The notes below the pieces were generated by a model. It had not been told where the DNA came from. It worked only from the letters and a program-made list of their open reading frames with translations, and did no database searches. Source: Escherichia coli 042 (GTDB lineage: Bacteria > Pseudomonadota > Gammaproteobacteria > Enterobacterales > Enterobacteriaceae). From it: 64,000 nt of DNA. The stretch lies in the NCBI RefSeq assembly GCF_000027125.1, contig NC_017626.1; one strand, 5' to 3'. Of this stretch, positions 20,929 to 58,980 are shown piece by piece (the first letter of the stretch is position 1; every line of letters starts with the position of its first letter). A program made the translations under genes and the position numbers.

Positions 20929-21207
<279 letters not shown>

Positions 21208-21786: not shown

Positions 21787-24311
<2,525 letters not shown>

Positions 24312-43015: not shown

Positions 43016-43024
43016 ATCCACTCC

Positions 43025-43053
43025 ACAAAAAAGCCCGCCTGAACCGGCGGGCT
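43025..43053 (-). terminator. rho-independent terminator after lom
   Basis: Minus strand reads GCCCGCCGGTTCAGGCGGGC followed by TTTTTT, between the lom stop and the stf start. Confidence 0.55.
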
Positions 43054-43079
43054 GTCATAACACTGTGTTACCTGGCTAA

Positions 43080-43679
43080 TCAGAACTTATAACCGACACC
43101 CACGATGAAACCGTCAGTGCGCCAGTCGCCACTGCCGGAGCCTTCATAAGCAATATCAATGGCCACGGATTCGGTCGGGTTAAACTGCACGCCAGCTCCC
43201 CACGCCAGAGACGTGTTGCTGTGGCGATCGTCATCACTTCCGGTCAGCACATCGTGCGTTTTCCCCTTGTTGTCAGTTACGCGGAGATAATCCCCGGAGA
43301 ACGTCGAAACACGGCTGTAAGCCACACCTGCCATCGCATAAGCACTGAACCATTCATTCACGCGTACAGATGGCCCCGCCATCATGCTGAACCAGCGGTT
43401 ACGCACTGAATCTTCATGCCAGCGGGTATCGCTGTAATGCGTTTTTTGCTCATCTTTGGCATTGGCATAACTGAATGACGTCACCAGCCCCAGCGTGTCC
43501 GTAAATTCATAACGGTATTTCACGTTAATGCCCTTCAGGTCATCACTGCCTGGCATATCAGTATGGGTCTGAAGATACCCGGCGCTTAGTGTGGACTGAT
43601 GCTCTGCTGCGCTCGCTGGCGTACCAGCGGCAACCAGCCAGACTACTGCGGACAGAATAACAGCACATAATTTACGCAT
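43080..43679 (-). CDS. lom: Ail/Lom-family outer membrane beta-barrel protein
   Basis: 199-aa ORF with signal peptide; C-terminus (AYEGSGSGDWRTDGFIVGVGYKF) matches lambda Lom; lies between J and stf as in lambda. Confidence 0.9.
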   Translation of the reverse strand: MRKLCAVILSAVVWLVAAGTPASAAEHQSTLSAGYLQTHTDMPGSDDLKGINVKYRYEFTDTLGLVTSFSYANAKDEQKTHYSDTRWHEDSVRNRWFSMMAGPSVRVNEWFSAYAMAGVAYSRVSTFSGDYLRVTDNKGKTHDVLTGSDDDRHSNTSLAWGAGVQFNPTESVAIDIAYEGSGSGDWRTDGFIVGVGYKF

Positions 43680-43746
43680 AATTACCTCTCGCTTTTCTGC
43701 AATAAAAAAGGCACCATTTCTGGTGCCCGTATCTGGGTTATAAAAT

Positions 43747-46700
43747 TCAGCTAATCGTGATGCCTGCAGTGGCTTTCTTCATCACAACAACCAGCAAATC
43801 GCTGATACTTGCTGTGGGATACCAGCCATTTACCAGCCATGCTGACACCGAAAACTCCAGTGTCATGTGACCGTGACCGGCAGGCATATCAATAACGCCA
43901 CTGTAAATCAGCGTATTATCCAGCGCGGTACGGTTATAAATTTCAGCACCGTTTTTCCGCACTATCAGACGGCATGAGGAGTAAATATCAGTATGCTCTC
44001 TCTCATGCTTAGCGCCACTGAATGCCACAGCTGGAATAACAATTTGCCGGTCAAACGGCTGATCGTCATAAACCCTGACGGTAATGGTCCCTGATGGCCA
44101 CCGCTCCGGTGCCCGGGAGTCACGGGGGAAAGCTTTGCCCACTGTTTTAACGAGATCGCCTTCAATCTGGTTCGCGGACAGTTTTCCCAGAACCCGGCAG
44201 TTCTCGTTAATCGTGACGTTGTTGAGCGTCCCGGAGTTCGCATTCACGTTACCGCTGATATCGGCATTTTTCGCCGTCAGCCGCCCGTCCGGTGTCAGGG
44301 AAAATGCCGGAGGATTACCGCCGCTGGTAATGGTGGGGGCCGTCAGGCGCTTCAGGAACACGTCGTTCATGAATATCTGGTTGCCCTGCGCCACAAACAT
44401 CGGCGTTTCATTCCCGTTTGCCGGGTCAATAAACGCGATACGGTTAGCGGCAACCAGGAACTGGCTCAGTTTGCCTTCCTCCGTATCCTCCATGCTGAGG
44501 CCAAGCCCCGCGACATAATGTTTGCCGTCTTTGGTCTGCTCAATTTTGACGCCCCACATGGCATTCCATTTATCGTTGGCGTCCTTCCACTCTTTCGAAA
44601 ACTCCTCCAGTTTGCTGGCGTTATCTTCCGTCAGCTCAAAGTTTTCCAGCAGTTCCTTGCCGAGATGCGTTTTATTGATCAACCCTTTATAAAAATTCAG
44701 ATAACCTTCCGCATCATCGCTCGCCCGACCAACGGCCTCCACAAATGCCGATTTACCAACGGTGTTCACGCTGCGGATATAAAAGTAATAATCATAACCC
44801 GGCTTAATATTGCTACTGGCGGCTATCCAGTACAGCGCCGTACCAAGATAACGCGCGCTGGTTTCAACCTGCCTGATATCGATAATCCGCTTTTCCGAGA
44901 ACCAGAACTCAAACTGCACCGTCGGGTCATATACAGCCAGTTTCGGGACCGCTGTTATCTGAAAATACCCTGGTATCAGTTCAATAGTGACAGGCGCTGC
45001 CGGTGCCGCAATCCGGAACGATACCGATGCCGGATCGCCCTGCTGCCCCCACGCATTTACCGCCCGGACCGTCAGCGTGTAACGCCCCAGCGCCAGTTGC
45101 CTGAAGCGGTATGTGGTTTCCGTCGTCCGGGCCATGCTGACCAGCCGCTCACTGCCGTCGTCCGCTGCCACGGTAAGGCGAAGCAGGAAGCTCACGCCCT
45201 TCACCACCTTCGGCGTGTCCCATCGCGCCAGCACCTGATATTCCCCGCTGTCTGCGGTGACTTCGGCGGTCAGGTGCTGCACCGCTGGCGGCGTGACACC
45301 ATTCACCGTGCCGCTCTGGTCGCCGTCAAAGTGCGCCCCGTTATCCACGATGGCTTCTTTTTCCGGTACATGCTGCACGGCGGTGATGGCATACGTACCG
45401 TCATCGTTCTCCCGGATACTCACACAGCGGAACAGGCGCTGGCGCAGCGTCGGCAGCTTCAGCCCCCATACGCTGTATTCAGCAACACCGTCAGGAACAC
45501 GGCTCACTTTTACCTTCACGCCGTCGGTGACGGACTGAACCTCCACGCTGACCGGATTGCCACTTCCGTCAACCAGGCTTATCAGCGTGGTACCGGAGGA
45601 TGGCAGCGTGATTTCACGGTCGAGCGTCAGCGTCCGGGTCTGGCTGTTCACCGCCAGCACACGACCACCGGTGCTGATACCGGCATAGTCATCATCACAG
45701 ATTTCAATGACATCGCCCGGTACATGGCGAAGCCCTTCTGCGCCCACGCTGAAGTCCACGGTCTGCGTTTCCAGCAGTTCCGTTTTAATCAGCCACAGCC
45801 CGGCGCGGTGTGCCTGCCCCCGGCTGGTACAGCCAAAGGCATCCATCTTCGTGACGTTACGACCGTAACGGGCAATGGCCTGCGTATCTTCAACAAGCTC
45901 TGTCGCCGTCTCCCAGCCGTTGTTCGGGTCAATCCAGTTCACCTCAACGGCATTATGGCGGTCCTTCAGGGCGCTGAAGCTGTAGCGGAACGGCGCGCCA
46001 TCATCCGGCATCACCACATTACTGCGGTTATAGGTCCACACCTTATCTGATGGTCGGTCCTGCACGAACGTCAGCGTCTGCCCGTTCCATACCGGCATAC
46101 AGCGCATCGCCGAGCAGAAATCACTGAGAACATCCCACGCCTTACGCTGTGTGGTCAGCCAGGCATTACAGGTGATGCGCGGCTCCGTGCCACCAAAGCC
46201 ATCCGGCACCGACTGGTCGCAATTCTGGCCGATGACATACAGCGCCCATTTGTCCACATCCGCCGCACCGAGACGCTTCCCCATGCCGTAGCGCGGATGG
46301 GTCAGCATATCCCACAGACACCAGGCCATGTTGTTGCTGTATGCTGGCTTAAACGTTCCGTCCCAGATACCGCTGTATTGCCGCGTCTGCGGGTTATAGT
46401 TCGACGGCACCTGCAGAATGCGCCCGCGAAGATGATAATTACGGCTCACCTGCTGACTGCCGAACTGTTCCGAGTCCACCTGCACGCCGACCAGTGCCGT
46501 GTTCGGGTAGCACTGTTTCACATCGATGATTTCGGTGTATGACGACCAGAGCGTTTTGTTCTGCAGCTGGTCTGTGGTGCTGTCCGGCGTCATCCTGCGC
46601 ATCCGGATATTAAACGGGCGCGGCGGCAGGTTACCCACCACCACCGAGGCCAGATACTGCGAGGTGGTTTTGCCCTTAATGGTGATGTCTTTTTCCGTCA

Positions 46701-47142
46701 CCCAGCCACCGTTACGCTGTATCTGAACCAGCAGGCGGACTTCCGACGGATTCCTGTCCCCCTTTGAGGTGGTTTCCACCAGTGTCTGCACGCCGAAAGT
46801 AAAACGCAGACGGTCAATGTTTGCCGACGTGATGGTCCGGGTGATCGGCGTGTCATATTTCACTTCTGTACCGAGCACCGTCTCGGAGCCGGAGGATTCA
46901 AACCCCTCCGGCGGAGTCTGCTCCTGCTCACCTGCCCGGAACACCACCGTGACGCCGGAGATGTTGGTATTCCCCTCAGTGTCCAGCACTGGCGTACTGT
47001 TCAGCAGCACGCTTTTTAATCCATCCACCGGACCGTCAATCGGCCCTTCGCTGATGGCATCGATCACACTCAGCAACTGCGTGGACTTCAGGTTGTCCTT
47101 CGCTTCGCGCGGGGTATGCCCCTTACTGCTGCCTTTACCCAT
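43747..47142 (-). CDS. J: tail tip host-specificity protein (central tail fiber)
   Basis: 1131-aa ORF, the size of lambda J, in the lambda position after I. Confidence 0.93.
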
Positions 47143-47202
47143 TCTTCACGCTCCATAAACGACAAAACCGCCCGCAGGCGGTTTCACATAAAACATTTTT
47201 CA

Positions 47203-47850
47203 TCAGCGACCAATCACCACAACCTGACCACCATCACCTTCATCTGCCGTGCTGATCTCCTGAGATACCACCCGCGACCCCACACGCATTTCACCGTACA
47301 GAACGGGCAGAACATTGCCCTGGGCAACCATGTTATCCAGTGACGAGAAATACGTGTTCTGTTTGCCGTTATCTGTACTGGCTGCCGTGGGCGTCCGGGC
47401 TTTCGGTGCCAGCATCTGCGCCACACCACCCAGGATCATACTGGCCCCTGCTGCATACATACCCGATACAGCCGCGGCCCCCAGCCAGCCCACAGGGTTC
47501 CACCATGCCACCGCAATCAGCGCCGCACCCAGCACCGCCTGAAACACACCGCCACTTTTGGCCCCCTCCAGACGCGGAACGATGTGGATCACGGCACCAT
47601 TTGCCAGCGGCTCATTAAGACGGGCAGATAATTCGGTTTCACCTGCATCACGCCCGGCAATCCGTACCTGATACCAGCCGTCACTCAGTTTCTGACGAAA
47701 CGCCGGGATCTGCATGGCCAGCGCCCGGATGGCTTCGGCCCCCGTTTTCACACGAAGGTCGATGCGGCGGCCAAATCGTTGTAAATCCCCGTAAAGGCAG
47801 ATGCGTACCATGCCCGGTGACGCCAGAGGGAGTGTGTGCGTCGCTGCCAT
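47203..47850 (-). CDS. I: tail tip assembly protein I
   Basis: 215-aa ORF closely matching lambda I (MAATHTLPLASPGM...GDGGQVVVIGR). Confidence 0.9.
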   Translation of the reverse strand: MAATHTLPLASPGMVRICLYGDLQRFGRRIDLRVKTGAEAIRALAMQIPAFRQKLSDGWYQVRIAGRDAGETELSARLNEPLANGAVIHIVPRLEGAKSGGVFQAVLGAALIAVAWWNPVGWLGAAAVSGMYAAGASMILGGVAQMLAPKARTPTAASTDNGKQNTYFSSLDNMVAQGNVLPVLYGEMRVGSRVVSQEISTADEGDGGQVVVIGR

Positions 47851-48491
47851 TTGTCGGTATACCTCTCTCGTTTGCTCAGTTGTTCAGGAATATGGTGCAG
47901 CAGCTCGCCGTCGCCGCAGTAAATGGCGGCATGATTCGGCACCGATGAACCAAAACAGCACAGCAGCACATCGCCCGGCTGCGCCTCTGTCAGTGCGACA
48001 CGGTAAAAACCAGTCGCCTCCATATTGTCAAGATAGAGATTCTGGCCGTTACGCCACCAGTCATCCCCGCGATAAAAATCCGGCATCTCAATTTCCGCCA
48101 GATGGTATGCATCCCGGAACAGCGTGTAACAGTCCGTCACCCCGTGCTCAAAGCGCCGCCCGGTAAGATGTGGCACACAGCGGAACTTGTGAATCGCCCC
48201 CCGGCAGACCAGCCACCACGGCAAATCACTCTGCACCTGCAGCCGCCTGTCGACCTCACTCAGCCAGGGCAGACCACCGGGGTGGCTGTGGACCAGTGCC
48301 ACAACCTCCCCCTGCATTTGTGCACGCAGCCAGTCCTCCGGCGACATCCGGAAATACGCCTCCGGCTCACCGGAGATATTCACGCAGGGAAAATATCTGT
48401 CCCCCTCCGGCGTTCTCACCACGAAGCCGCACGACTCCGCTGGCGCACATCGCCGGGCGTGCGCCAGAATCGCTGATTCTGTCTCTGTCAT
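47748..48491 (-). CDS. K: tail tip assembly protein K (MPN plus NlpC/P60-like domains)
   Basis: Start taken at MTETESAILAHARRCAPAESCGFVV; lambda K-like sequence, overlapping gene I. Confidence 0.9.
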   Translation of the reverse strand: MTETESAILAHARRCAPAESCGFVVRTPEGDRYFPCVNISGEPEAYFRMSPEDWLRAQMQGEVVALVHSHPGGLPWLSEVDRRLQVQSDLPWWLVCRGAIHKFRCVPHLTGRRFEHGVTDCYTLFRDAYHLAEIEMPDFYRGDDWWRNGQNLYLDNMEATGFYRVALTEAQPGDVLLCCFGSSVPNHAAIYCGDGELLHHIPEQLSKRERYTDKWQRRTHSLWRHRAWYASAFTGIYNDLAAASTFV

Positions 48492-48495
48492 GGGT

Positions 48496-49194
48496 TTACT
48501 GCGAAAGTTTGTTAATGGAAAGGTAGCCGCCAAAATTGCCGACGTTATTGCGGAACTTGCAACCACTCAGGCATTTGCTGCACTTATCCTTCGTGATATC
48601 GGACGTTGGCTGGTCATATTCATCCGCGACCGCCGGGCCATCATAACCGCACTCATCGCCGCGGTAGATCCAGGTGCAGGTGTTGGCCAGCATGATGCGC
48701 CCCGGAAAAACAGCGCCATCCGTTTCCGTCGGTGTGGACAGCACAAAAGAGGCACTGACCGCGCTCAGTTCGCTGCACTGTTCGATGCGCCAGCGGCTGA
48801 TCACCTCCTGCTCCGGATCGGCGTCACTGTTTCCGTTGACGAAGTTCACCGCATCCAGAAAACGGGCGTAAACCTTACGCCGGACCACCGTTCCGCCGAC
48901 CAGACTCTGCAGATCTTCCGCCATCCCGGTGACCATGCCGTACAGGTTAGAGACTTTAAGCGTTGGCCTTGCACTGGCTCCTTTGCCGTTCATCTCAAAT
49001 CCGCTTCCCTGAATGGGATAAGCCTGATACTGCCGCCCCTGCCAGGTGACTGGTTCACCCTTTTCGTTCTGCTCATTACAGAAGAAATAACGATCTCCGC
49101 CGACCTCTGTCAGATCAATTTCCCAGAGCACGACCAGCGCGGATTGCTCCGTTTTAGTGCACTCATTGAGTGTTTCCTGCTGTATATCCTGCAT
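48496..49194 (-). CDS. L: tail tip protein L
   Basis: 232-aa ORF of lambda L size and sequence type (MQDIQQETLNECTK...). Confidence 0.9.
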   Translation of the reverse strand: MQDIQQETLNECTKTEQSALVVLWEIDLTEVGGDRYFFCNEQNEKGEPVTWQGRQYQAYPIQGSGFEMNGKGASARPTLKVSNLYGMVTGMAEDLQSLVGGTVVRRKVYARFLDAVNFVNGNSDADPEQEVISRWRIEQCSELSAVSASFVLSTPTETDGAVFPGRIMLANTCTWIYRGDECGYDGPAVADEYDQPTSDITKDKCSKCLSGCKFRNNVGNFGGYLSINKLSQ

Positions 49195-49580
49195 CAGTGA
49201 GTGACCTCTTCAAAGGTACAGTTAAAATCGGTATACATGGCATTATCCGAAATGCTCCACTCCCTGCAGACAACCCGGACAGTCCTGTTGTGTTTTGGCG
49301 GACGCCACAAAAAAGCACGAATCCCGGCATGACGGGATAAAAAACTGTCCAGCGCGGCACGGGAATATTCATCTGTGACACGAAATACCGGTTTAAACGT
49401 TTTCAGATCCGCATTCAGACCACCAGCCCGTCGCTGTTCATATCCGTCACCAAACTTTACCGTAATAACTGATGGCTTTCGTGTCGTCTCCATCCCCTCA
49501 CGGGGGATCCAGTTAAAAACTTCAGGCTCAGGCACTGTACAATCCTCCATCCCGACGCGATGACTGCATAATTGACACAA
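49194..49580 (-). CDS. M: minor tail protein M
   Basis: Lambda M-like (VKFGDGYEQRRAGGLNADLKT); the true start is probably internal to the track ORF. Confidence 0.8.
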   Translation of the reverse strand: MCQLCSHRVGMEDCTVPEPEVFNWIPREGMETTRKPSVITVKFGDGYEQRRAGGLNADLKTFKPVFRVTDEYSRAALDSFLSRHAGIRAFLWRPPKHNRTVRVVCREWSISDNAMYTDFNCTFEEVTH

Positions 49581-52500
49581 CCCTGCTGTCGATCAGATCC
49601 ACCAGTCCCCTGGCTGAGCGCGCATCTATCTCGCCATTGCTCCCTTGATTCTGAATGCTGATGTGATACACGGGAGAATAAACAAATCCACCGCCACCAT
49701 TCACATTTCCAATGGCCCTGACCCCAAGAGAGCCGTCCGCTGCCCGTGTCAGTGGCATGATTGCTTCAGGCCCGGCCTCGCCCATCAACCCGGCACCTTT
49801 CGCAAAAGCAAAATACGTCGGTGTATCCACAATAGTGTTACTGTAAGCACTCAGATTTGCCGATGTGTAAACACCACCTTTTGCGTTTGCCACTGCCCCC
49901 GAAATCCATCCGCCGACCGTACCAAGCCACCCTCCGGCACCGGAGAGTGATTTCAGTCCGTTAACAATGGCTGCATTCATCAGAATTTTTGAAACTTCCC
50001 GGAGAACTGAACTCCCCCAGTTCCTCCAGTCCACAACATTCCCGGCCAGTGCATCGGAAATATTTGATACCAGCCCGTCCATCGTGGAAACGACAGCATC
50101 TGCCGCCTGTGAAGCATAATCGGTGGCACTGTCTGCCCAGTTGGTCAGTCCCTCCTGGAGTCCGGCATTCCAGTTATTACGTAAAGCATCGGCCTTTGCA
50201 TAATAATCCTGCTGATCACTGAGACGCTCTTCCAGATATTTTTTATTCAGTTCTTTCTCCTGTTTCCACAGGGCTTCTTCAATTTCTCCGGCCTGATACT
50301 GTCTCAGCAGCTCGTTATTTTTCTGCTCAAACGCCTGCCGGATACTCCACATTTCCTGGAGTCGTTCACGCATCCGTGAGCCTTCACCATATCCCAGCAA
50401 CTGCGCTTCGTCAGATGCCCGGGCACTGGCATTACTGTCCGCCAGACTGCTCTCATACGCAGCAAGCTGCTCACGAATCTTTTTCTGGTCGATGAGTGCT
50501 GCATTCTGCAAAAGCGTTTTTTTCTGCGCTTCTGACAGGGTTGATAATTCGCCCTGACTGACCTGATATTTCATCTTAGCCAGTTCAGTATTCTGCCCTG
50601 CCAGTGCTATTTGTTCTTTTTGCTGTTTAATCAGCCGTTTATAAATATCTTCTGTTTTTTCCGCTTCGGTCTTTTTATGCGTTTTGGGTTTATTTGCCTG
50701 GTTATTTCGCCAGGCATCCAGTGAGTTATTGATATAATTCTGCCTGGCTGTCTGATACGCCTCTCCCACAAAGCCGAGATCATCCGCAGCATAACCCAGG
50801 CGGGCACGCTCACGGGCTTCCCCCTTCAGGCGGGACAGAGCCAGTTCGCGCTCGCTGTTATTCAGTGCAGTCTGCTGTTTATCATCCAGGGTTGCCTGTG
50901 GTAGCCGTAACGGTACATTCACCAGCCCCTGTCGCTGCTGAAGTAATTCATTACCGAGCCCGAGAAGGCGATTAAACTCGGTATGCTGCCCATTCATGAT
51001 CAACAGGGACTGATACGCTTTGTTTTGTTCCGCGGCCTGTTGACGGATCAACGCCACCCGTCGCTCCTCCAGCCCGGCAAGCACATCCTGAATGGATTGC
51101 GCTTTGCCCTGCATTTGTGTGAGACGGGACTGTTCAACTGCCAGTTGATTTGTTGCTTCTGCAAGCCCTTCTGTGACAGTTTTTACCGACGTCATGTGGT
51201 TAATCATAAAACCGTTATCGGTTGTCCAGCCCGGGTTTGCCAGCACATACTGATAGCCAGCAATTTTTTCCTGTAAGGATTTAATCTTACTTTTCTGCTC
51301 GTCAATTAACCTGTTTTGCTCATCAAGTGCCTGCCGCGTCTTTTCCTCATTATCTGACGCTTCAGGAAGCGACATTGCCGACGTTTTCTGGCGAATTTCG
51401 TCGATTGTTGCGGCATACTGGCGTGCAGATTCTCTGGCCTGCTCCTGATTCTGATACATCGTGTACCAGGCCGTCGCCCCCAGCATGACGAGTCCCGGCA
51501 CACCACCAACCAACCCCAGCGCACCACTTAACAGACGACTCCCCACTGACGTGACAGTATTCAGCGTTGTCTGTGCCGCTGTTCTGGCCGCAATATTACG
51601 GGTAAGTGACGCCTGGGCAGCTGTCAGCTTCGCTTCTGCTGCGGCCTGCCTTTCGGTACCGCGAGCAGCAACAACCGCCTGTTGCGCACGATAAACCGCC
51701 GCACGCGCCCTGGCGGTTGCTATCTGTGTCCCCCGAAGTTGCGCTTCAGCAAGAGCCACTTCGTTTCTGGCTGCAGTAATTAATCCGGCAGTTGCAGATC
51801 CAGCAGACGACGCCATATTGCCAAAATATCGGGCTACCCCGACGGCAACCAGAGCACCGGCAGCGGTTGCCACGGTGTCAATATTGCCTGCAATACCATT
51901 CAGCACACCGGAGAGCGTCTTCGTCACTCCGCTTGCCTCGTTCGCACCACCAACCCAGGCCATAAAGGCGTTTTCAACTTTGGTTGCAGAGGATGAAACC
52001 GTATCAGGCATTGCCGCATATTCATCACGTAATGCCCCAAGCTGACTAATCAGTGCAGGAACAACCTTATCGGCGGTCAACTTTCCGTTATCCGCCATGG
52101 CCTTCAGATCCTTACGGGCAACTCCCATTCCCGCAGCCAGAGCACGAATAACACGATCGCCGTTCTCATTCACCGAGTTAAACTCTTCACCGCGCAGCAC
52201 TCCCTGCGCCAGAGCCTGACTGAACTGCGTGATCACCGAACTGGCTTCTGCTGTACTGGCACCGGATAATTTCAGGCCCGTGGAGATCGCCTCGGTGACT
52301 TTCAGTACCTCCTCAGAACTGTAACCATACTCCCGCATGGAAGCTGCAGAGCGGGCAAAAAGGCTGGCGTTATCAGAAAAAGCCGTCCCCGTTCTCTGGC
52401 TGATCGCCATTAATTCACGCTGTGATGACTGAAAATCATCACTGGACTGTGAGGCCTGCTTCAGACGGGCATTTACTGAATTCCACTCATCGGCGAGAGA

Positions 52501-52761
52501 AATAAGATGACCGGTAGCAAAAGCCCCGGCAAATGCCCCCGCCATGTTCAGTGCCGAAGATTTAGCTGTATTTATCTGATCCGTCACTTCTGCCAGTGCA
52601 CGCCGCATTTCACGGGATGCAGCAGCGGACTGTCGGCCTCCGTTCTGCATGGTACGGTAGTAATCCTGCCCCATACGCGAAGACCGGGAGATCTCTGACT
52701 GGAATGACCGGGAATTTGCCGAGATTTTAATAATCAGTTCACGTAATGTCGCCACACTCAT
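49528..52761 (-). CDS. H: tail length tape-measure protein
   Basis: 1077-aa largely alpha-helical ORF between the G/T chaperones and M. Confidence 0.85.
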   Translation of the reverse strand: MSVATLRELIIKISANSRSFQSEISRSSRMGQDYYRTMQNGGRQSAAASREMRRALAEVTDQINTAKSSALNMAGAFAGAFATGHLISLADEWNSVNARLKQASQSSDDFQSSQRELMAISQRTGTAFSDNASLFARSAASMREYGYSSEEVLKVTEAISTGLKLSGASTAEASSVITQFSQALAQGVLRGEEFNSVNENGDRVIRALAAGMGVARKDLKAMADNGKLTADKVVPALISQLGALRDEYAAMPDTVSSSATKVENAFMAWVGGANEASGVTKTLSGVLNGIAGNIDTVATAAGALVAVGVARYFGNMASSAGSATAGLITAARNEVALAEAQLRGTQIATARARAAVYRAQQAVVAARGTERQAAAEAKLTAAQASLTRNIAARTAAQTTLNTVTSVGSRLLSGALGLVGGVPGLVMLGATAWYTMYQNQEQARESARQYAATIDEIRQKTSAMSLPEASDNEEKTRQALDEQNRLIDEQKSKIKSLQEKIAGYQYVLANPGWTTDNGFMINHMTSVKTVTEGLAEATNQLAVEQSRLTQMQGKAQSIQDVLAGLEERRVALIRQQAAEQNKAYQSLLIMNGQHTEFNRLLGLGNELLQQRQGLVNVPLRLPQATLDDKQQTALNNSERELALSRLKGEARERARLGYAADDLGFVGEAYQTARQNYINNSLDAWRNNQANKPKTHKKTEAEKTEDIYKRLIKQQKEQIALAGQNTELAKMKYQVSQGELSTLSEAQKKTLLQNAALIDQKKIREQLAAYESSLADSNASARASDEAQLLGYGEGSRMRERLQEMWSIRQAFEQKNNELLRQYQAGEIEEALWKQEKELNKKYLEERLSDQQDYYAKADALRNNWNAGLQEGLTNWADSATDYASQAADAVVSTMDGLVSNISDALAGNVVDWRNWGSSVLREVSKILMNAAIVNGLKSLSGAGGWLGTVGGWISGAVANAKGGVYTSANLSAYSNTIVDTPTYFAFAKGAGLMGEAGPEAIMPLTRAADGSLGVRAIGNVNGGGGFVYSPVYHISIQNQGSNGEIDARSARGLVDLIDSRVVSIMQSSRRDGGLYSA

Positions 52762-52801
52762 TCTCCGGACGAAAAAAAACCGCCGAAGCGGTTATGTTGA
52801 C

Positions 52802-53092
52802 TCACTGAGACACTATTAAAAGCGCGTTTTCCAGTCCAGCAAATGGATCTGATACGCCTTCTGTCTGCTCCTTCTCCCACTGAAGAAGCGCATCATTCAG
52901 TGGCACTTTGACCCCCTGCGCACCGTAAACAGCTGAAACAATCTGGGCAGCCCGGATATCAGCCCGTTCGTCCCCCAGCGGGCTGAACCTGTCAAATTCT
53001 GCCCACATCATGATTTCTGATGCGGACATTTCCCGGCGTAACTCTGACAATGTGCGCCCCATCCTGAGCGCCAGCATCATCAGAAAACGCAT
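52802..53092 (-). CDS. T: T portion of the G-T tail assembly chaperone fusion (expressed by -1 frameshift from G)
   Basis: ORF in the -1 frame relative to G, directly downstream of a slippery heptamer; this frame is open from the slip site into the ORF. Confidence 0.7.
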   Translation of the reverse strand: MRFLMMLALRMGRTLSELRREMSASEIMMWAEFDRFSPLGDERADIRAAQIVSAVYGAQGVKVPLNDALLQWEKEQTEGVSDPFAGLENALLIVSQ

Positions 53093-53103
53093 CCCCGGAA
53101 GCG

Positions 53104-53490
53104 CTACTTTTTTTTAACCTCGCCGGCATCACTGATCAGTTCCAGAGACTGCCGAAGAAGCCGCGCATGCACCGGGCCATACACGGCAATCACCTGTTCA
53201 CGATCATCCACTGAAAATACAGGTTGCAGTCCGGTATCACACAGAACATCGATGAACAGTTCAACATCCGCTTCCAGATTTCGGCGGGCGCGCTCCGCAA
53301 CGGATAACGGTGTCTCATCATCTTTTGCTTTAACGATCTCCTGCCAGCGCAACCAGGCTTCTGCAGAAGGTTCCCGTAATACAACCGTTGCCCCTTCCCA
53401 TTCAGGCACATCAACAGTTTTATGGCGAAACCCCGACATCGTTGCCAGTGCCAGATTACGGATATTTTTAGTCATCACATCTATCCTCAT
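53104..53490 (-). CDS. G: tail assembly chaperone G
   Basis: 128-aa ORF ending GEVKKK* at a run of A, upstream of the tape-measure gene. Confidence 0.75.
   Translation of the reverse strand: MRIDVMTKNIRNLALATMSGFRHKTVDVPEWEGATVVLREPSAEAWLRWQEIVKAKDDETPLSVAERARRNLEADVELFIDVLCDTGLQPVFSVDDREQVIAVYGPVHARLLRQSLELISDAGEVKKK
53107..53113 (-). promoter_or_regulatory. programmed -1 ribosomal frameshift site (A AAA AAG) joining G to T
   Basis: Minus strand reads GTT AAA AAA AAG TAG; a slip on A AAA AAG gives ...KK-VALPG-MRFLMML..., continuous with the T ORF. Confidence 0.6.
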
Positions 53491-54194
53491 TAACTGACGG
53501 TAACAGTGCAGGAAGTAGAGGTCACCTTGTTAACAGGACTTGCTGAATCAGAAATCTCGCAGGTATATGCACCCGCATCACCGGATACTGCCGATGCCTT
53601 ACTGAACGTTGCCGCCGTCTGTCCGGAAACAGGAGAACCACCTTTCTTCCAGACATAAGAATAAGGCGGCACACCACCCGCAGCCTCAACCGCCATTTCA
53701 AGTTTCGCTCCGGAAGCAACCCGCAGCGTGCTTTTTAAATCGGCCTTCACTTTCAGCGGCTCTGTCGTCAGCACAGGTTTACCTTTCAGGCGCAAGGAAA
53801 ACGTTGCAGCCACAACACCATTGGTTCCTGCAGACCAGGTATGCTGACGCACCTCTGCCATAAAGGTAAATCCGTTGCCTGACGGAAAAATAACTTTAAA
53901 GCCATACGTGGTGTCATTGTCATAGGCACTGCGCAACGCGTTCTGGGCAGCATTCAGATAAAAGTTGCCTGACATGGAAATCTCTGAAGCAGCCCCAAGG
54001 CCGTTAATATTTTCCTGCTCAACAGAACACAGCGTGGTGACATCAATATCCTGCTTTTGTCCTGCGGTAAACTGCACCTCTTTGATTGTACAGCTCAGGC
54101 CAAGATAGCTGGCAGAATCCAGGGTTTCTGCTGTTACCGGTGCAGACGAAATCATAATTTTCGTCAGTTGCGAACGCTCAAAATTAGAGGACAT
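53490..54194 (-). CDS. major tail protein with C-terminal Ig-like domain
   Basis: 234-aa ORF immediately upstream of G; the C-terminal 90 aa look like a Big_2-type Ig domain (PPYSYVWKKGG...GAYTCEISD); not lambda V-like in sequence. Confidence 0.65.
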   Translation of the reverse strand: MSSNFERSQLTKIMISSAPVTAETLDSASYLGLSCTIKEVQFTAGQKQDIDVTTLCSVEQENINGLGAASEISMSGNFYLNAAQNALRSAYDNDTTYGFKVIFPSGNGFTFMAEVRQHTWSAGTNGVVAATFSLRLKGKPVLTTEPLKVKADLKSTLRVASGAKLEMAVEAAGGVPPYSYVWKKGGSPVSGQTAATFSKASAVSGDAGAYTCEISDSASPVNKVTSTSCTVTVS

Positions 54195-54254
54195 ACTCGT
54201 CTCCTGAAAATAAAAAAACCCGCCAGCGGCGGGTGGGTAAAATCATTAATGACC

Positions 54255-54599
54255 TCAGGCTATTACTTGGAATTCAAGCGTGGCTCTGCTCAGACGGGAG
54301 TCAGGATCATAACCCTGCGTTTTAGAAATAACGGAGGGTGCCAGTTTTCTTACCACATCAAGCGCCTGCTCACGAATATTATCTGCGTCATCAGGTACTG
54401 TCGCCCAGACATCGATCTGCACGGTAATTCTGGATTCAGCCTGCCCATCAAGCACATCAGATGCCGTGTCAGACACCACAGAAAACACCAGCCACGGCGG
54501 AGATACCGCAGGCTTTCCATCCGTCAGTGGGACCACATAAGGATAAACCTGTCCTCCGGCCAGCTGAGACAACAGGGAATACAGTGTGGCCTCTCTCAT
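54255..54599 (-). CDS. tail completion / head-tail joining protein (family uncertain)
   Basis: 114-aa ORF between the connector genes and the major tail gene. Confidence 0.4.
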   Translation of the reverse strand: MREATLYSLLSQLAGGQVYPYVVPLTDGKPAVSPPWLVFSVVSDTASDVLDGQAESRITVQIDVWATVPDDADNIREQALDVVRKLAPSVISKTQGYDPDSRLSRATLEFQVIA

Positions 54600-55045
54600 T
54601 TACTTAAGACCTCATCAATAGCCTGATTCATTCGCTGTATGGCAATCCGTGCTGCCAGTTCCTCTGTCGTATCGAAAGCCGGGCGAATGAATGGATGCGC
54701 GGGCATGTTTATCGTTCCCAGCTCCACAAAGCGCCAGTAAAATGCATTTCGGGGATCGCTGGCTTTCATGCTGTTATCACTGTTTCCGGTTCGCAGGTTC
54801 CGTCCGCGAATGTGGACACCCGAGATAATTTCCCCCCGACGCTTTGAACGCTGAGTGAGAACAACCACATTTTTCTTCAGTTTCCCGGTTCGCTCCGGCG
54901 CACGTTCAACAACTGCATCCCGCATAACTTCAGCACCGGCACGGGTGGCATCGCGCAGAACCTTATTGTTTTCTGCCCTGCTGAGCGTCTCCAAATCCCG
55001 TGCAATATCCGCCAGGCCGGAAAAATCAAGACTGAAATCCATCAC
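54596..55045 (-). CDS. HK97 gp10-like tail component protein
   Basis: 149-aa ORF with the family motif as I recall it (NAFYWRFVELGT...PAHPFIRPAF). Confidence 0.5.
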   Translation of the reverse strand: MMDFSLDFSGLADIARDLETLSRAENNKVLRDATRAGAEVMRDAVVERAPERTGKLKKNVVVLTQRSKRRGEIISGVHIRGRNLRTGNSDNSMKASDPRNAFYWRFVELGTINMPAHPFIRPAFDTTEELAARIAIQRMNQAIDEVLSK

Positions 55046-55380
55046 ACATTCCCCTTCAGGCTGCAGAGTATTTCAAGCCGGGTAGCGCGTGCATCCGGTA
55101 TTGGTGGACCTTCTATACCCAGAATGGCCCCTTTAAATGCACCGGTCAGCACTTTCAGACGTGAAGTCGCTGTCACATCGCGCCGGAATCTCATCCAGAC
55201 TCTGACCGTAGCCTGAGCGGTTTCTGCTCCGCCTGAGATTATCTCCCTCCCGCTGATACCCTTAACTTCTGCCCATACGGTAGCTCCCTCCGTCACCGTC
55301 TCCACCGGATGCCCTGACGGAGAGCGGGCGGTGGTGACATTCAGAATAATTACGCGATCACGTAATCTGCCCGCCTGCAT
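55042..55380 (-). CDS. head closure / head-tail adaptor protein
   Basis: 112-aa ORF in the connector position of an HK97-type head module. Confidence 0.5.
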   Translation of the reverse strand: MQAGRLRDRVIILNVTTARSPSGHPVETVTEGATVWAEVKGISGREIISGGAETAQATVRVWMRFRRDVTATSRLKVLTGAFKGAILGIEGPPIPDARATRLEILCSLKGNV

Positions 55381-55388
55381 GTCTCCTC

Positions 55389-55739
55389 CTACAAAGGAAT
55401 AAAACGATAAGGCTCCAGCAGAGAAGAAAAACCAAACGGGACTGGTGCCTTGCTGACATCTGAGGAATTTTCCCGGTTTTCGTACCAGTGCCCGACCAGC
55501 AACATGAGCGCCAGCAAAACATCATCAGCTATAAGCACCCCTTCAGGATCACCTTCCGGCACCGTCTCCTCATAAAGCTTACGGTTGATAAAATTTTCTG
55601 CCTTGCGGCAGGCAGCCCGGAAATACAGCATCAGTAACTCATCATCAGTTGCATCATCTGTATCAATACGGCACTGCGCCCTGAGTTTTTCCACTATTGC
55701 TGCCATCAGAAACTCCTGCCCGCAACACTGTGCGGGCAT
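55389..55739 (-). CDS. gp6-like head-tail connector protein
   Basis: Follows the capsid gene; the track ORF has an implausible hydrophobic leader, so the start is set at an internal ATG; conserved YENRE motif region. Confidence 0.5.
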   Translation of the reverse strand: MPAQCCGQEFLMAAIVEKLRAQCRIDTDDATDDELLMLYFRAACRKAENFINRKLYEETVPEGDPEGVLIADDVLLALMLLVGHWYENRENSSDVSKAPVPFGFSSLLEPYRFIPL

Positions 55740-55782
55740 AAAAAAACCGCGTCGGCGCGGTCTGTAACTGAACAACGAGTGG

Positions 55783-57000
55783 TTATTTGCCAGTGAGCGC
55801 CTTGATGGCTGCCACATCTTCCAGCACACAGTCAAAACGATGGAAAGCCAGAAATGCCACCTGATCAAACTCAGCATAACGCTCAACCAGACGTTTCAGT
55901 TCCATATAAGTAACGCGGCGAATGATAAAGCGGTTGAAATCCCCCAGGAAAATGAATTTTTTTCCGGTACCAATCCCGTCAATAGCCTGATCAATAACAT
56001 AAGGGATCCCCAGCACAGTAGCCGGCGTACCGCCTGCAATATCCGGCAGCCATAACGGGCGTTTCTGTCCATCCTCCATCTCTTCAATAGTCTGCAATGT
56101 GGCATCATTGAATGCCCAGCGGTATTTCGGCCCACCACGATATGCCGGATCAATGGCATGTTTCAGGGCATTCATTTCTTTCCAGGTGAAAGCGGCAGAG
56201 GCTGCAGTCTGGATGATTCCCGTCACCGACGCTGCCAGCCCTTTTGGCTGTAACGGTGATCCCGTTCCGGTCCCCTGAACCAGATATTTCGCCTCTCCAC
56301 GACCAATACGCTGGGCAATACGGTTTGCCAGATAAGATTCAATATCCACCCCACTGTCCTGGAGCAGCTCATTGGACACACGAATTATTTTTGATGACAG
56401 CTTTTTAGCCCCCAGAATAGCGGTCCCGAACGTCACATCCTGTTCCGTTGCGGCTGTATTTTCCGCCAGCAGTTCGCCCTCTTCAGTCGTGCCATCAGAC
56501 GTTGACCAGGTGATATCCTGCCCGGTTGATGTGGTCAGAAGTTGCGCAACACTGGCAATCCCGCCATAAGCCTTCATGGTGTCAATGATTTTGTTACGCA
56601 TCTGCGTGGGCACCGTATATCCGCCCTGAGAATCCGTTGTTACACTCTGAGCCCGCAGTTCACGCATCAGATTACGCTCTTCAGCATTCAGTTCTGCAAA
56701 TCCGGCACGCAGAAAACGGTTAAATGCCGCAGCGCGCTTCTCTTCCACCGCCTTTTTCCCGTTCTCCGCCTCATTATTCTGGCGCTCTTCCGGCCCGGAC
56801 TCATCCACATATGCCTGATCCTGACGGCGCAACTCTTCTTCACGGGCGATTTGCTCATCCAGCGCATCCAGCTCAGCTTTCGCCCTGTTCCACTCTGCCC
56901 GTTGCTCATCAGTCCATGCGTTATCACCAATTTTTTCATGCAGTGCACGCATATCCTTTGCAATGGTGTTTCGTTTTTGCTTCATCTCATGAAGTTTCAT
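55783..57000 (-). CDS. HK97-family major capsid protein
   Basis: 405-aa ORF with N-terminal coiled-coil delta domain and C-terminal HK97-fold region, after the prohead protease. Confidence 0.85.
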   Translation of the reverse strand: MKLHEMKQKRNTIAKDMRALHEKIGDNAWTDEQRAEWNRAKAELDALDEQIAREEELRRQDQAYVDESGPEERQNNEAENGKKAVEEKRAAAFNRFLRAGFAELNAEERNLMRELRAQSVTTDSQGGYTVPTQMRNKIIDTMKAYGGIASVAQLLTTSTGQDITWSTSDGTTEEGELLAENTAATEQDVTFGTAILGAKKLSSKIIRVSNELLQDSGVDIESYLANRIAQRIGRGEAKYLVQGTGTGSPLQPKGLAASVTGIIQTAASAAFTWKEMNALKHAIDPAYRGGPKYRWAFNDATLQTIEEMEDGQKRPLWLPDIAGGTPATVLGIPYVIDQAIDGIGTGKKFIFLGDFNRFIIRRVTYMELKRLVERYAEFDQVAFLAFHRFDCVLEDVAAIKALTGK

Positions 57001-57014
57001 CGTCAGTAGTATCC

Positions 57015-57614
57015 TTATGCATTAAGAAGGGTCAAAAGACGCTCACGCGCCATTCGTTCGTTAACAGCTTTCTTCAGCGCACCACTCGCCCGCGCTTCCT
57101 GCCAGGCTTTCATTGAGCGGACACCAGAGTCTGCGTCCTGATAGGCCGGATATGTCACCGGGCTGACGTCATACAGACGAGAAATGCGCGTGATTTCCCG
57201 GATAACAATCCCCTCGTCGTCTTCATACCAGCTCTCTCCATCACGAGCGACGCGAAACGCGAACGAGGACTGATTAATGTCACCACGCAACATTGGTGAC
57301 AGCACCAGGTCACAAATCGTCGGCGTATCCGGTGCAACAATGTCGTAACGCAAACCACGTTCATCCACTGATAATGACAACGTGCCGGCAGAACTTCGTC
57401 CGAGAATGAAATTAGGATCATGATTAAACAATCCACGTACATCATCATTCAGCACGTCGTCAAAAGCCCCCGGCTTGATGATTTCACGAAATCCCCACAG
57501 AGGTTCTGAACGACTGTTAAATACCGAGCCATACCCCAAAATATGAGTCGGGGCATTATCATATTGTTCTGCCCGCACTTCCCCGCTGTAACAGCGCGTT
57601 TCACGGTCATTCAT
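57015..57614 (-). CDS. HK97-family prohead maturation protease
   Basis: About 200-aa ORF between portal and capsid; start chosen at the internal ATG overlapping the portal stop by 8 nt. Confidence 0.8.
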   Translation of the reverse strand: MNDRETRCYSGEVRAEQYDNAPTHILGYGSVFNSRSEPLWGFREIIKPGAFDDVLNDDVRGLFNHDPNFILGRSSAGTLSLSVDERGLRYDIVAPDTPTICDLVLSPMLRGDINQSSFAFRVARDGESWYEDDEGIVIREITRISRLYDVSPVTYPAYQDADSGVRSMKAWQEARASGALKKAVNERMARERLLTLLNA

Positions 57615-58833
57615 CGTTCTTTTCCTCTTTGCCTTTCGTATCTTTAAAATCATTCAACGGATTTGCTGCATTTACGCTGACCAGCATTTCATCCAGACCA
57701 TCAACCGGGTTCATGTCCTCAAATGCCCTCGCTTCATTCCGGCTCATCCAGCCATCTGTAATGGCAAAGTGATAAAACTGCGCACGCTCCTGTGGAGTCC
57801 CGCGGAGCAATCCTGTAAGGTTGAAACGAACGTAATACCCGGCAGCCCGTTCTGTGCGGGTAAACAGGCGACGGTTAAGCTCCTGCTCCCAGTTCGCAAC
57901 CCAGGGCATCATCGTGTAGCGAACAAACTGAATCGCCTGCTGTGTAATATTCGAAAATGTGGCTTTTTCCAGGTCATTAATCATGTGCGCCGGGACATTA
58001 AAAATTCCGGCAATCATCGACCGGTTCAGCTTGGTCATATCAATGATCTGAGCATCCACCGGAGAAACTGTCAGGGCACGGTAATCCAGTTGCGCAGGCA
58101 GCAGCATGGTTTTATTTTCCTGACTGCGAAGCTCTGTCACCGCCCGCTGCCACATATTCTTGAGCCTGCTCCAACTCTGTTCGTTCAGTTCATTTTTCAC
58201 AGAAATAATCCCGGCAGGACGGGCATTACCGTTAAAAAAAGCACTGGTATACTGCTGACCACTCATTCCCATACCAATGGTTTCAGCATGCTGCATGATC
58301 GGACTCAGTCCCATTTTCTGATTGTTTCCCAGCGCCCTGATATGGATCATGTCGTCCGGACTTACCGCAAATGCACCCTCTTCGTTATACACACCGTAGG
58401 TATGACGCCCTCCAGTGTTAAGTAACGTGGTTTCCCATGGCATACAGCATTCAAGACTGGTAACCTCGCCACGACGATTACGTTTCACCCACGTATAACC
58501 ATTGCCCCACCCCAGCACATGACGCTGCTTCAGTTCCCGCCACTTATAGCTGGTCTGCCAGGCATTCGGTTCATCATGAACGAGCCAGAACAACGGGTGA
58601 TCGCGTGCCGGCTGAACATGCTCATTCGTTTTTCGCATCACATGCAGGGGCATCTGAGCCACACTGGATGAAATAACATAAATACAGGCATAGACAGCAG
58701 CCAGCCTCATGGACGTTTCCGGACTGACATACACATCCCGGGCAAAAATATTATCCGTCTCAGCGGCCTCTCCGGTTACCGGAACCGAGGGATTTTCCAG
58801 AGGCTCACTGCGAAACAGAGCATCAAGAAGCAT
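57607..58833 (-). CDS. HK97-family portal protein
   Basis: 408-aa ORF upstream of protease and capsid, with conserved portal C-terminal region (MMPWVANWEQELNRRLF). Confidence 0.85.
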   Translation of the reverse strand: MLLDALFRSEPLENPSVPVTGEAAETDNIFARDVYVSPETSMRLAAVYACIYVISSSVAQMPLHVMRKTNEHVQPARDHPLFWLVHDEPNAWQTSYKWRELKQRHVLGWGNGYTWVKRNRRGEVTSLECCMPWETTLLNTGGRHTYGVYNEEGAFAVSPDDMIHIRALGNNQKMGLSPIMQHAETIGMGMSGQQYTSAFFNGNARPAGIISVKNELNEQSWSRLKNMWQRAVTELRSQENKTMLLPAQLDYRALTVSPVDAQIIDMTKLNRSMIAGIFNVPAHMINDLEKATFSNITQQAIQFVRYTMMPWVANWEQELNRRLFTRTERAAGYYVRFNLTGLLRGTPQERAQFYHFAITDGWMSRNEARAFEDMNPVDGLDEMLVSVNAANPLNDFKDTKGKEEKNDE

Positions 58834-58980
58834 GTTTTCTCCTCATGGACACCACCAGTGCATAAAGCAGCAACAAACAGCCAGACAGCATCAGAGACGC
58901 TGGCAGACCTGCATACAGATAAACGCCAGCAGTGAGCAGACCGAAACCGATCAGCCCGGTCATATCAGTAATAAGCTGTT

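Follow-up and report, generated by a model that had tools for sequence, protein, structure and literature searches.

The region spanning positions 43080 to 58833 of the window (the whole stretch of 64,000 nucleotides of Escherichia coli 042, contig NC_017626.1, analysed here) is very probably a recombinational patchwork, namely the operon of late structural genes that runs from portal to lom in a lambdoid prophage. The prophage adjoins zinT. Both limits of the region coincide exactly with gene ends (those of lom and of the portal gene), all 17 late genes between them are intact and on the minus strand with their overlaps conserved, and the gene order is syntenic with both lambda and HK97 throughout. 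Modular exchange among at least four or five segments of different ancestry is supported by the comparisons described below. First in transcription order comes the head cassette, comprising the 3' end of terL and the genes for portal, protease, capsid and adaptor, of the SfV/Klebsiella-phage lineage and of HK97 fold. It is followed by a neck and shaft (Hc, gp10-like protein, tail completion protein, major tail protein, G/T and tape measure) with HK97 kinship at the protein level only; by M, which travels with the shaft; by a tip of lambda lineage (L, K, I and J to about residue 976); and by a host-range cassette made up of the receptor-binding domain of J, lom and the N-terminus of Stf. The features are listed in Table 1.

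Table 1. Features of the structural operon and its flanks (window positions; all on the minus strand).
Feature	Positions	Basis
Side tail fibre Stf, 799 aa	40616–43015	Pfam phage_tail_N, residues 3–132
Host-range cassette: J receptor-binding domain, lom, Stf N-terminus	42300–44400	2G7b comparison
lom, Ail/Lom outer-membrane protein	43080–43679	Pfam Ail_Lom, E=1.7e-127
J, tail tip attachment protein, 1131 aa; a chimera when compared with lambda, joint near codon 977	43747–47142	Pfam
Lambda-like tip block: L (48496–49194), K (47748–48491), I (47203–47850), J codons 1 to ~976	44210–49198	91.3% nt identity to lambda
Diverged patch inside gene I	47364–47640	46–72% identity to lambda between flanks of 87–97%
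Minor tail protein M	49194–49550	outside both lambda and HK97 lineages
Tape measure protein H, 1075 aa, HK97 type	49528–52755	Pfam Phage_HK97_TLTM, E=1e-93
Tail assembly chaperones G (53104–53475) and T (52802–53080)	52802–53475	Pfam Phage_TAC_1, Phage_tail_T
Major tail protein of the HK97 gp12 type, 234 aa, with an Ig-like domain at the C-terminus	53490–54194	Pfam Ig_2, above cut-off
Tail completion/terminator protein, gp17 family	54255–54599	Pfam Tail_completion_gp17; 52% aa identity to HK97 gp11
HK97-gp10-family neck protein	54596–55042	Pfam HK97-gp10_like; 80% aa identity to HK97
Head closure protein Hc, first gene of the HK97-like block	55042–55380	Pfam Phage_HCP
Ad, gp6-like head-tail adaptor of 105 aa; closes the head cassette	55389–55706	Pfam Phage_connect_1
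Exchangeable head cassette: final ~58 nt of terL, 162-nt ORF, portal, protease, MCP, Ad	55392–59038	606R7 comparison
Major capsid protein (MCP), 405 aa	55783–57000	Pfam Phage_capsid (PF05065), E=3.9e-70
Prohead serine protease, 199 aa	57015–57614	Pfam Peptidase_S78 (PF04586), E=1.6e-40
Portal, 408 aa	57607–58833	Pfam Phage_portal (PF04860), E=1.5e-100
C-terminal fragment of prophage terL, bounded by the satellite att core (59711–59724, TTGGTAAGAATATT)	58981–59724	L001 comparison
Right end of capsid-forming satellite	59725–64000	ORFs; Pfam TerL_ATPase, TerL_nuclease
Satellite terL	60233–61894	
Satellite terS	61878–62375	
Satellite HNH gene	62523–62963	
Satellite connector	62963–63349	
Satellite portal	63255 to beyond window end	

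Protein identities were taken gene by gene against 11 reference phages (for HK97, a match was scored as absent when none was found at E<1e-3), and were complemented by a 100-nt identity plot, third-codon-position identities and Pfam domain searches. Between neighbours, identity per gene dropped in steps from some 90% to some 40%, and the plot had sharp steps at the M/L junction, inside I, at about codon 977 of J and at the 3' end of lom. N15 and phi80 were uninformative as references (23–36% aa identity in the tail tip genes, no meaningful nucleotide match). The initial annotation had regarded uniform identity to a single reference phage as the finding that would speak against exchange. Identity was stepped against the classical references and near-uniform against vB_EcoS-640R1 (96–100% from portal to L), so 640R1 belongs to the same mosaic lineage. 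Mosaicism is defined only pairwise.

The head cassette was delimited by comparison with 606R7, in which its 3.65 kb are flanked by sequence 97.5% identical to the window over 48358–55391 and 94.8% identical over 59039–59724; between those flanks 606R7 has no nucleotide similarity to the window and carries a different head gene set. The order portal, protease, capsid and the Pfam families of these proteins, which have HK97 members and were matched well above their thresholds, place the head in the HK97 type at the level of the family. A close relationship to HK97 itself was not found: identity was 28% for the portal and 24%, over one third of the length, for the MCP, and neither the protease nor Ad had a match in HK97 at E<1e-3. 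The portal was 88% identical to that of Klebsiella phage vB_VIPKPNMC05 and 83% to that of SfV, the protease 88% and 81%, and the MCP 74% and 68%, respectively; the nearest named relatives of the MCP are Klebsiella phages, at 74%. Ad was 72% identical to its counterpart in vB_VIPKPNMC05 and 48% to that of 606R7. As judged from these identities, the head is HK97-type by family only, and its closest named relatives are vB_VIPKPNMC05 (72–88%) and SfV (49–83%).

The genes from Hc to H form a contiguous block with 52–80% aa identity to gp7–gp16 of HK97 over full lengths, as expected of an HK97-type neck and shaft. Hc was 65% identical to gp7, and nucleotide similarity to HK97 began at 55353, within this gene, and extended at 65–76% over 49690–55353; against 606R7, Hc was at an intermediate level (82–88% nt). 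The major tail protein equals gp12 in length (705 nt, 234 aa) and was 73% identical to it over the full length, and no similarity to lambda V was detected; Phage_TTP_11 was matched below threshold only. The chaperones G and T were 65% and 64% identical to gp13 and gp14, and directly before the G stop lies the slippery run A AAA AAG (about 53107–53113), a site for −1 frameshifting, with T in the −1 frame and open. H was 55% identical to HK97 H over its full length, 77% to that of JLK-2012 and 26% to lambda H, in the C-terminal third only. At third codon positions the shaft was 32–45% identical to HK97, which is near saturation, so the relationship is old and 'HK97-like' names a family and not a recent donor.

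M lies between the shaft and the tip. It was 40% identical to the lambda protein, 39% to that of HK97, 63% to that of JLK-2012 and 100% to those of 606R7 and 640R1. The lambda-like block begins beyond it, with 91.3% nt identity between 44210–49214 of the window and 13409–18437 of lambda. L, K, I and J were 94%, 83%, 78% and 89% identical to their lambda counterparts at the aa level (96% for J residues 1–976), as had been anticipated for these four genes. The diverged patch inside I appeared as the same dip when 2G7b was used as the reference. A lambda-type L was found in 4175 E. coli genomes, joined to this M in only 890 of them, and the L match ended at one and the same base in about 3300 genomes (window ~49198, the overlap of the M stop and the L start).

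J has all of its domains as detected by Pfam, including Ig_GpJ_C at 1001–1131. Its last ~155 residues, from 977 to the end, make up the receptor-binding domain and were 43% identical to lambda; the whole protein was 97% identical to that of 2G7b. Lom had been described as lambda-like, and this was not borne out: it represents another allele, 45% identical to lambda lom and 99% to that of 2G7b. The Stf N-terminus was lambda-like as proposed, with 61% aa identity to lambda orf-401 over residues 3–273, that is, over the first ~273 of the 799 residues and in no other part of the protein; nucleotide similarity to lambda (83.7%) was found over 42663–43207, covering the Stf start and the 3' end of lom. 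The host-range cassette was 93–100% identical to 2G7b per 100-nt window (mostly 97–100%), with flanks at 82–99%. Over 43080–44210, identity was 99.6% to 2G7b, 94% to VT1-Sakai and 91–92% to Stx2a phages and JLK-2012. The cassette was very probably shared recently with 2G7b-like and Stx-type phages. Relative to 640R1 it has been exchanged again, the distal end of 640R1 being diverged (J 90%, lom 88%, Stf 63%). The low identity of M, the J receptor-binding domain and lom to lambda (40%, 43% and 45% aa, with third positions at 34–40%) places these three outside the lambda lineage, and the receptor may differ from that of lambda.

The initial annotation had drawn a map with three origins: the tip, with I, K, L, J, lom and the N-terminus of Stf, was assigned to lambda, the head to the HK97 type and the major tail protein to a third, non-lambda source. 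The 78–94% identity of L, K, I and J to lambda agrees with this map, as do the lack of a lambda V match for the major tail protein and the membership of the head proteins in Pfam families shared with HK97. In its details the map is unlikely. The major tail protein is indeed unlike lambda V, but it sits inside the contiguous Hc-to-H block related to HK97 and has no origin of its own; the head, assigned correctly to its families, is the least HK97-like part of the region and is nearest to the Klebsiella phage and SfV; lom and the J receptor-binding domain fall far below the rest of the tip; and M resembles neither reference.

An account without any exchange was also considered, in which the operon descended vertically from an ancestor common to lambda and HK97 and gene-specific rates explain the uneven identity. 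Full synteny with both phages speaks for it, and receptor-binding and surface proteins do evolve fast. Third-position identity to lambda was, however, 78–87% in L and J(1–976) and 33–40% in the adjoining M (39%), H, J(977–end) and lom, and differences in rate are excluded as the cause because synonymous divergence is thus non-uniform along the operon. In addition, the identity steps span 20–100 nt, the L match ends at the same base across thousands of genomes, and the blocks are combined otherwise elsewhere. The shaft is joined to another head in 606R7, head and shaft together to another tip in vB_VIPKPNMC05, and the tip to the lambda-type head and shaft in lambda and 2G7b; in SfV a related head goes with a contractile tail of Mu-like type. 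The modules compared in JLK-2012 were likewise found with different partners. Vertical descent alone is extremely improbable, and exchange of modules, as originally suggested, is favoured by the abrupt changes between segments and by the different combinations in other phages.

The boundaries of the exchanged modules had been said to coincide with short intergenic gaps or overlaps. This held for Ad/Hc (an 8-nt gap) and M/L (an overlap); those at the 3' end of terL, in the I patch, near codon 977 of J, at the 3' end of lom and in Stf fall inside genes, mostly at domain borders. Most intergenic gaps contain terminator-like hairpins, and these gaps are not mosaic junctions. Hairpins of this kind flank lom (43728–43709 and 43053–43032). 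In a scan for promoters and terminators the totals were not above those of shuffled sequences (9 vs. 13.4; 19 vs. 16.9). The strongest terminator-like hairpins sit in intergenic gaps, a placement that alone is noteworthy.

The Ad/Hc joint is not frequently broken in E. coli: in 664 of 666 genomes a query across it was matched to the left and to the right, in a search of megablast sensitivity in which the more diverged Hc of the 606R7 type escaped detection, and Ad and Hc are on this account tightly linked in the species. Against vB_VIPKPNMC05 there was no break at this joint, the alignment being continuous at 72% over 54526–59607; the pairing of head and shaft may therefore be old, and each exchange may have run in either direction. 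The comparisons show the segment boundaries, distinct best relatives, distinct synonymous-site divergence and re-combined modules in other phages. As to mechanism, the pieces would have been joined by recombination, whether homologous, homeologous or illegitimate, among lambdoid phages and prophages that resided in or infected one cell together, in many cases inside short shared sequences on the flanks of a cassette, and joints would have survived only at gene or domain boundaries that preserve the compatibility of interacting proteins.

At least 80% of the 15.7-kb region was found in 640 of 5426 complete E. coli genomes (~12%), many at 100% identity and with ST131-type strains among the carriers. 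In the phage collection, at least 80% of the whole region was present in only two records, and the modules were distributed differently (head, 28 records; shaft, 104; tip, 271; receptor-binding domain and lom, 209). vB_EcoS-640R1 (ON470612) and PhiR49_2 (PV340570) cover 97–98% of the region at 96% identity, and Evi (LR597642) was 99.3% identical in the head and 97% in the shaft; the joints of the region are thus also present in deposited phage genomes. The terminase gene immediately upstream is interrupted and followed by a second packaging gene set, as might be seen if the joints were assembly artefacts, or if two adjacent or decayed prophage remnants lay here in place of one working operon. 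Such an explanation has next to no credence given the number of genomes that carry the region, its occurrence in separately deposited phages (640R1, PhiR49_2 and, for head and shaft, Evi), the integrity of 17 of 17 genes with overlaps and G/T frameshift site conserved, and the nature of the second packaging set, a precisely inserted satellite with att repeats. The product of exchange is a single operon that looks functional, with intact ORFs, the frameshift site kept and near-identical phage genomes deposited.

The interruption was resolved by comparison with intact copies. In L001, terL is intact at 1758 nt; the prophage fragment matched its 3' part at 99.7% identity, the match stopping at 59724, and the fragment covers positions 64–283 only of the Pfam TerL_nuclease profile. 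The last 4.3 kb of the satellite lie within the window; the remainder was deduced from a 98.6% identical copy in NZ_OZ501612, where the full element measures 15.28 kb and encodes int, two AlpA proteins, BRO-N, DUF927, SSB, MCP, protease, portal, connector, HNH, terS and terL (Pfam Phage_integrase, Phage_AlpA twice, DUF927, Phage_capsid, Phage_connect_1 and the TerL domains). Tail or lysis genes were absent from that copy. An int/AlpA/primase-like set with capsid and packaging genes in 10–16 kb, as present in the NZ_OZ501612 copy, is characteristic of helper-embedded (HE-PICI) and capsid-forming PICIs. The junction in the window is identical to the right junction in NZ_OZ501612. The two halves of terL overlap by 14 bp, a core TTGGTAA(G/A)AA(T/A)ATT with two mismatches being present at both junctions, and int abuts the N-terminal fragment of terL in the same reading direction; the insertion into this prophage late gene is thus precise and co-oriented, with att identity at both ends. 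It falls at terL codons 339–343, corresponding to about positions 60–62 of the TerL_nuclease profile and to about 245–249 of the former undivided Terminase_1, the latter range being an estimate since Pfam has split Terminase_1 into two models. Elsewhere the satellite junction was at best 98.6–98.9% identical, and the structural region itself was 100% identical to genomes with an intact terL. The capsid genes of the satellite were also considered as copies of the prophage head cassette, and this was rejected (24–40% aa identity, no match between the two adaptors).

The packaging 'rearrangement', which had been placed in the context of modular exchange, did not come about in that way; it is by gene content and junctions best described as a helper-embedded, capsid-forming satellite (HE-PICI) of ~15.3 kb that carries an integrase and is site-specifically inserted into terL. 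Helper-embedded PICIs in this configuration have already been published (PMC10111431), as have capsid-forming PICIs (bioRxiv 10.1101/2022.09.08.507074); published work on induction, excision and packaging into small capsids with helper tails concerned other elements. With the HE-PICIs at A:Terminase_1:245/246 and with capsid-forming PICIs the 15.3-kb element has in common int, AlpA, genes for BRO-N and a primase-like DUF927 protein, a complete set of capsid and packaging genes, the lack of tail and lysis genes, and a co-oriented, precise insertion within the helper's terL. With the satellite in place, the prophage can probably package its own DNA only once the satellite has excised. A further proposal, that the satellite needs only the Hc-to-J tail genes while it blocks prophage packaging until excision, and that the head cassette (terL 3' end to the Ad stop) reflects traffic of capsid modules among prophages and satellites on one tail platform, is speculative and quite improbable; if true, the Ad/Hc interface would be a selected 'universal socket' for that traffic.

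Patchwork exchange is the ordinary and long-known mode of evolution of lambda-like phages. The mosaicism described here is of this already known kind, one further instance resolved to five segments. In lambdoid phages, head genes and tail genes are co-transferred as separate modules (PMC9836094). The modular genome hypothesis and the comparisons of HK97, HK022 and lambda likewise involve syntenic genomes with abrupt changes of identity at gene or domain boundaries and with heads and tails as separate exchangeable units, and nothing in the present region differs in kind; lom, flanked by terminators, is moron-like. With lambda the region shares the L-K-I-J order and overlaps and a complete J domain architecture, whereas no likeness to lambda is seen in its equivalents of H, G, T, V, U and Z. 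With HK97 (and mEpX1) it shares near-equal lengths of gp7–gp16, a −1 frameshift chaperone pair and hairpins in the same gaps; the HK97 head (24–28%) and tip genes (33–39%) are not close, and the gp15 moron is absent from the region. vB_VIPKPNMC05 shares the shaft (51–76%) and the terL-to-H order but has an unrelated tail tip, and SfV, with its head at 49–83%, has a Mu-like contractile tail of its own.

For the annotation of related prophages, an 'HK97 family' label on head genes is no guide to relatedness with HK97, and the host-range end (J receptor-binding domain, lom and Stf) is to be regarded as the most recently exchanged part of the region. The findings have little importance beyond annotation; their value lies in mapping correctly the modules of a prophage family that is common in E. 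coli.

The genes at window positions 43080-58833, coordinates of the initial annotation that coincide exactly with the ends of lom and of the portal gene, form an operon of 17 co-oriented genes on the minus strand, with every ORF intact. In the order of transcription these are the portal, prohead protease, major capsid protein (MCP), head-tail adaptor (Ad), head closure (Hc), gp10-like neck protein, tail completion protein (Tc), major tail protein (MTP), chaperones G and T, tape measure H, M, L, K, I, J and lom, followed by the side tail fibre Stf. All 17 and Stf were given the expected structural family by Pfam. A slippery run (A AAA AAG) lies directly 5' of the stop codon of G, with T open in the -1 frame, and constitutes the conserved chaperone frameshift. 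The prophage adjoins zinT and the window is E. coli chromosome.

Per-gene comparison with lambda, HK97, phi80 and N15 upheld modular exchange, but the module map of the initial annotation needs correction, so that its interpretation is partly supported; the mosaic itself is real and well beyond chance. The lambda-like character of L, J, K and I was borne out, with 94, 89, 83 and 78% amino acid identity to lambda and about 30-36% to HK97, N15 and phi80. Lambda 13409-18437 aligned at 91.3% over 44210-49214, from about 20 nt 5' of the L start codon onwards, and a second alignment (83.7% over 42663-43207) covered the lom 3' end and the Stf N-terminus. The latter was also correctly called lambda-like (61% identity over about 273 of 799 residues), but lom was not, being 45% identical to lambda and 99% to phage 2G7b. 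In a 100-nt identity plot against lambda, a diverged patch was seen within I, and identity fell to 50-58% over the 3' part of J (codon ~977 onwards) and most of lom. A 2.1-kb block (~42300-44400; the J receptor-binding domain (RBD), lom and the Stf N-terminus) was 93-100% identical to 2G7b per 100-nt window, mostly 97-100% (99.6% over 43080-44210). Since its flanks and the other tip genes are only 82-99% identical to 2G7b, the comparison indicates that this host-range cassette was exchanged very recently.

Three small genes lie downstream of Stf: two ORFs of 93 and 95 aa, both 93-95% identical to 2G7b, and one for a tail-fibre-domain protein of 234 aa, which has a Peptidase_S74 chaperone domain and can be matched to 2G7b along no more than 14% of its length. 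The distal fibre end is a putative further swapped segment. At the prophage end beside zinT, a 66-bp stretch matches HK97 20974-21039, immediately upstream of the sib site of that phage, at 95.5% identity and phi80 22839-22906 at 84%; it is a candidate conserved terminator or att-proximal element. K, with JAB and NlpC/P60 domains, is 247 aa long and its gene begins 5 nt beyond L; the annotated lambda K has 199 aa. As the first 45 residues of the present K correspond to lambda DNA that lies 5' of the annotated start and in another frame (against lambda 14133-14875), the N-terminus of K appears to be frameshifted or truncated in the lambda reference.

Upstream of the tip, the genes from Hc to H had no match to lambda in the per-gene comparison, the C-terminal third of H excepted. 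Identity to HK97 was 65% for Hc, 80% for the gp10-like protein, 52% for Tc, 73% for MTP, 65% for G, 64% for T and 55% for H. The MTP, regarded initially as a non-lambda protein, is part of this HK97-like neck and shaft block, its gene (705 nt) being equal in length to HK97 gp12. The HK97 nucleotide alignment was in pieces (65-76% over 49690-55353), and third-position identity in the block was 32-45%, so that the relationship is ancient and seen in protein only. M shared 40% identity with lambda and 39% with HK97; its closest reference was the Stx-type phage JLK-2012 (63%).

The head, described initially as HK97-type, has the expected Pfam families but is the segment least similar to HK97: the portal was 28% identical, the capsid protein 24% over one third of its length, and the protease and Ad had no match to HK97 in the per-gene protein comparison. 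In the wider reference set, head genes shared 72-88% identity with Klebsiella phage vB_VIPKPNMC05 and 49-83% with Shigella phage SfV. The former aligned without a break through Ad/Hc (72% over 54526-59607) and shares the gene order from terL to H, but has an unrelated tail tip; SfV has a related head, but coupled to a Mu-like contractile tail. Phage 606R7 aligned at 97.5% over 48358-55391, ending at the Ad stop codon, and again from inside terL (94.8% over 59039-59724), with a different head gene set in place of the intervening 3.65 kb. The Ad and Hc alleles occur together in 664 of 666 E. coli genomes. Hc is only 82-88% (nt) and 91% (aa) identical to 606R7, between an unrelated Ad upstream and downstream genes at 94-99%; this junction is thus two-step, and Hc could be co-adapted with its adaptor allele.

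Uneven identity might reflect selective constraint, an explanation ruled out by third-codon-position identities to lambda. These were 78% for L, 87% for J(1-976) and 65% for I, and near saturation for M (39%), H (33%), J(977-end) (34%) and lom (40%); such contrasts between neighbours imply different divergence times from lambda. Matches were found in 28 phage records for the head module, 104 for the shaft, 271 for the tip (113 of these at 90-95%) and 209 for RBD-lom, and in 2 for the whole region at ≥80% coverage. Lambda-type L is present in 4175 E. coli genomes, coupled to the present M allele in only 890; in the remainder the match ends at ~49198, the overlap of the M stop and L start.

Positions of junctions, hairpins and other features in the window
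Feature	Position	Strand	Location
Intragenic junction			58 nt before terL stop
Intragenic junction			inside I
Intragenic junction			J codon ~977, just before RBD (1001-1131 by Pfam)
Intragenic junction			about 70 nt before lom stop
Intragenic junction			within Stf
Strong terminator-like hairpin	55763-55744	minus	gap MCP/Ad
Strong terminator-like hairpin	54234-54218	minus	gap Tc/MTP
Strong terminator-like hairpin	52793-52778	minus	gap T/H
Strong terminator-like hairpin	43728-43709	minus	gap J/lom
Strong terminator-like hairpin	43053-43032	minus	gap lom/Stf
Prophage terL, C-terminal 241 codons	58981-59706
Satellite junction	59711-59724		terL
Hc	55042-55380	minus
K	47748-48491	minus
Diverged patch	47364-47640		within I
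Distal fibre ORFs	39326-40619		downstream of Stf
66-bp stretch	39225-39290		prophage end beside zinT

Module boundaries had been placed at short gaps or overlaps, which holds for Ad/Hc (8-nt gap) and M/L (overlap); the others are intragenic. The larger, hairpin-bearing gaps are not module junctions, except the two flanking lom, whose position between terminator-like hairpins is as would be expected for a moron. The MCP/Ad, Tc/MTP and T/H hairpins mirror positions of annotated putative terminators in HK97.

The packaging rearrangement, wrongly linked to modular exchange, is the precise insertion of a satellite. Only the C-terminal part of the prophage terL is in the window, with similarity to intact terL up to 59724; upstream of it come another terL, this one complete, a terS of P27 type, genes for an HNH protein and a connector, and a second portal, which extends beyond the window end. 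The window holds only the last 4.3 kb of the satellite. In NZ_OZ501612, 98.6% identical over 58600-64000, a 15.28-kb element ends with this gene set. Besides the capsid, protease, portal, connector, HNH, terS and terL genes, the element has a tyrosine integrase, SSB, BRO-N, a DUF927 primase-like gene and two genes of the AlpA family; no tail or lysis genes were found in this copy. The terL halves overlap by 14 bp, each end carries the core TTGGTAA(G/A)AA(T/A)ATT, and the junction in the window is the same as the right junction of that element. Site-specific insertion, rather than a module swap, split terL. In gene content the satellite matches capsid-forming PICIs, a satellite class, and in configuration it matches helper-embedded PICIs, for which a terL site class (A:Terminase_1:245/246) and E. 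coli elements of ~16 kb are published (PMC10111431). Insertion is at terL codons 339-343, consistent with profile position 245/246 by estimate only. Satellite and prophage capsid proteins are 24-40% identical, and the junction is occupied in 33 of ~1080 E. coli genomes matching a junction-spanning query.

The swapped cassettes have conserved flanks on both sides, as would fit an exchange between related phages by homologous or homeologous recombination, with later selection for working combinations; such exchange is already documented in lambdoid phages (PMC9836094; PMC2327257). At least 80% of the 15.7-kb region is present in 640 of 5426 complete E. coli genomes, ST131 strains included, many of them 100% identical; near-identical genomes are also among deposited phages, vB_EcoS-640R1 and PhiR49_2 in the phage collection being 96% identical to the region. 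Lambdoid mosaicism was described decades ago, and the region is an ordinary example of it, in an arrangement already in hundreds of genomes and several phage records. Its joints pair Ad of one lineage with Hc of another, and non-lambda M and H with lambda-type L and J; the Ad/Hc and M-H/L-J interfaces evidently tolerate exchange.
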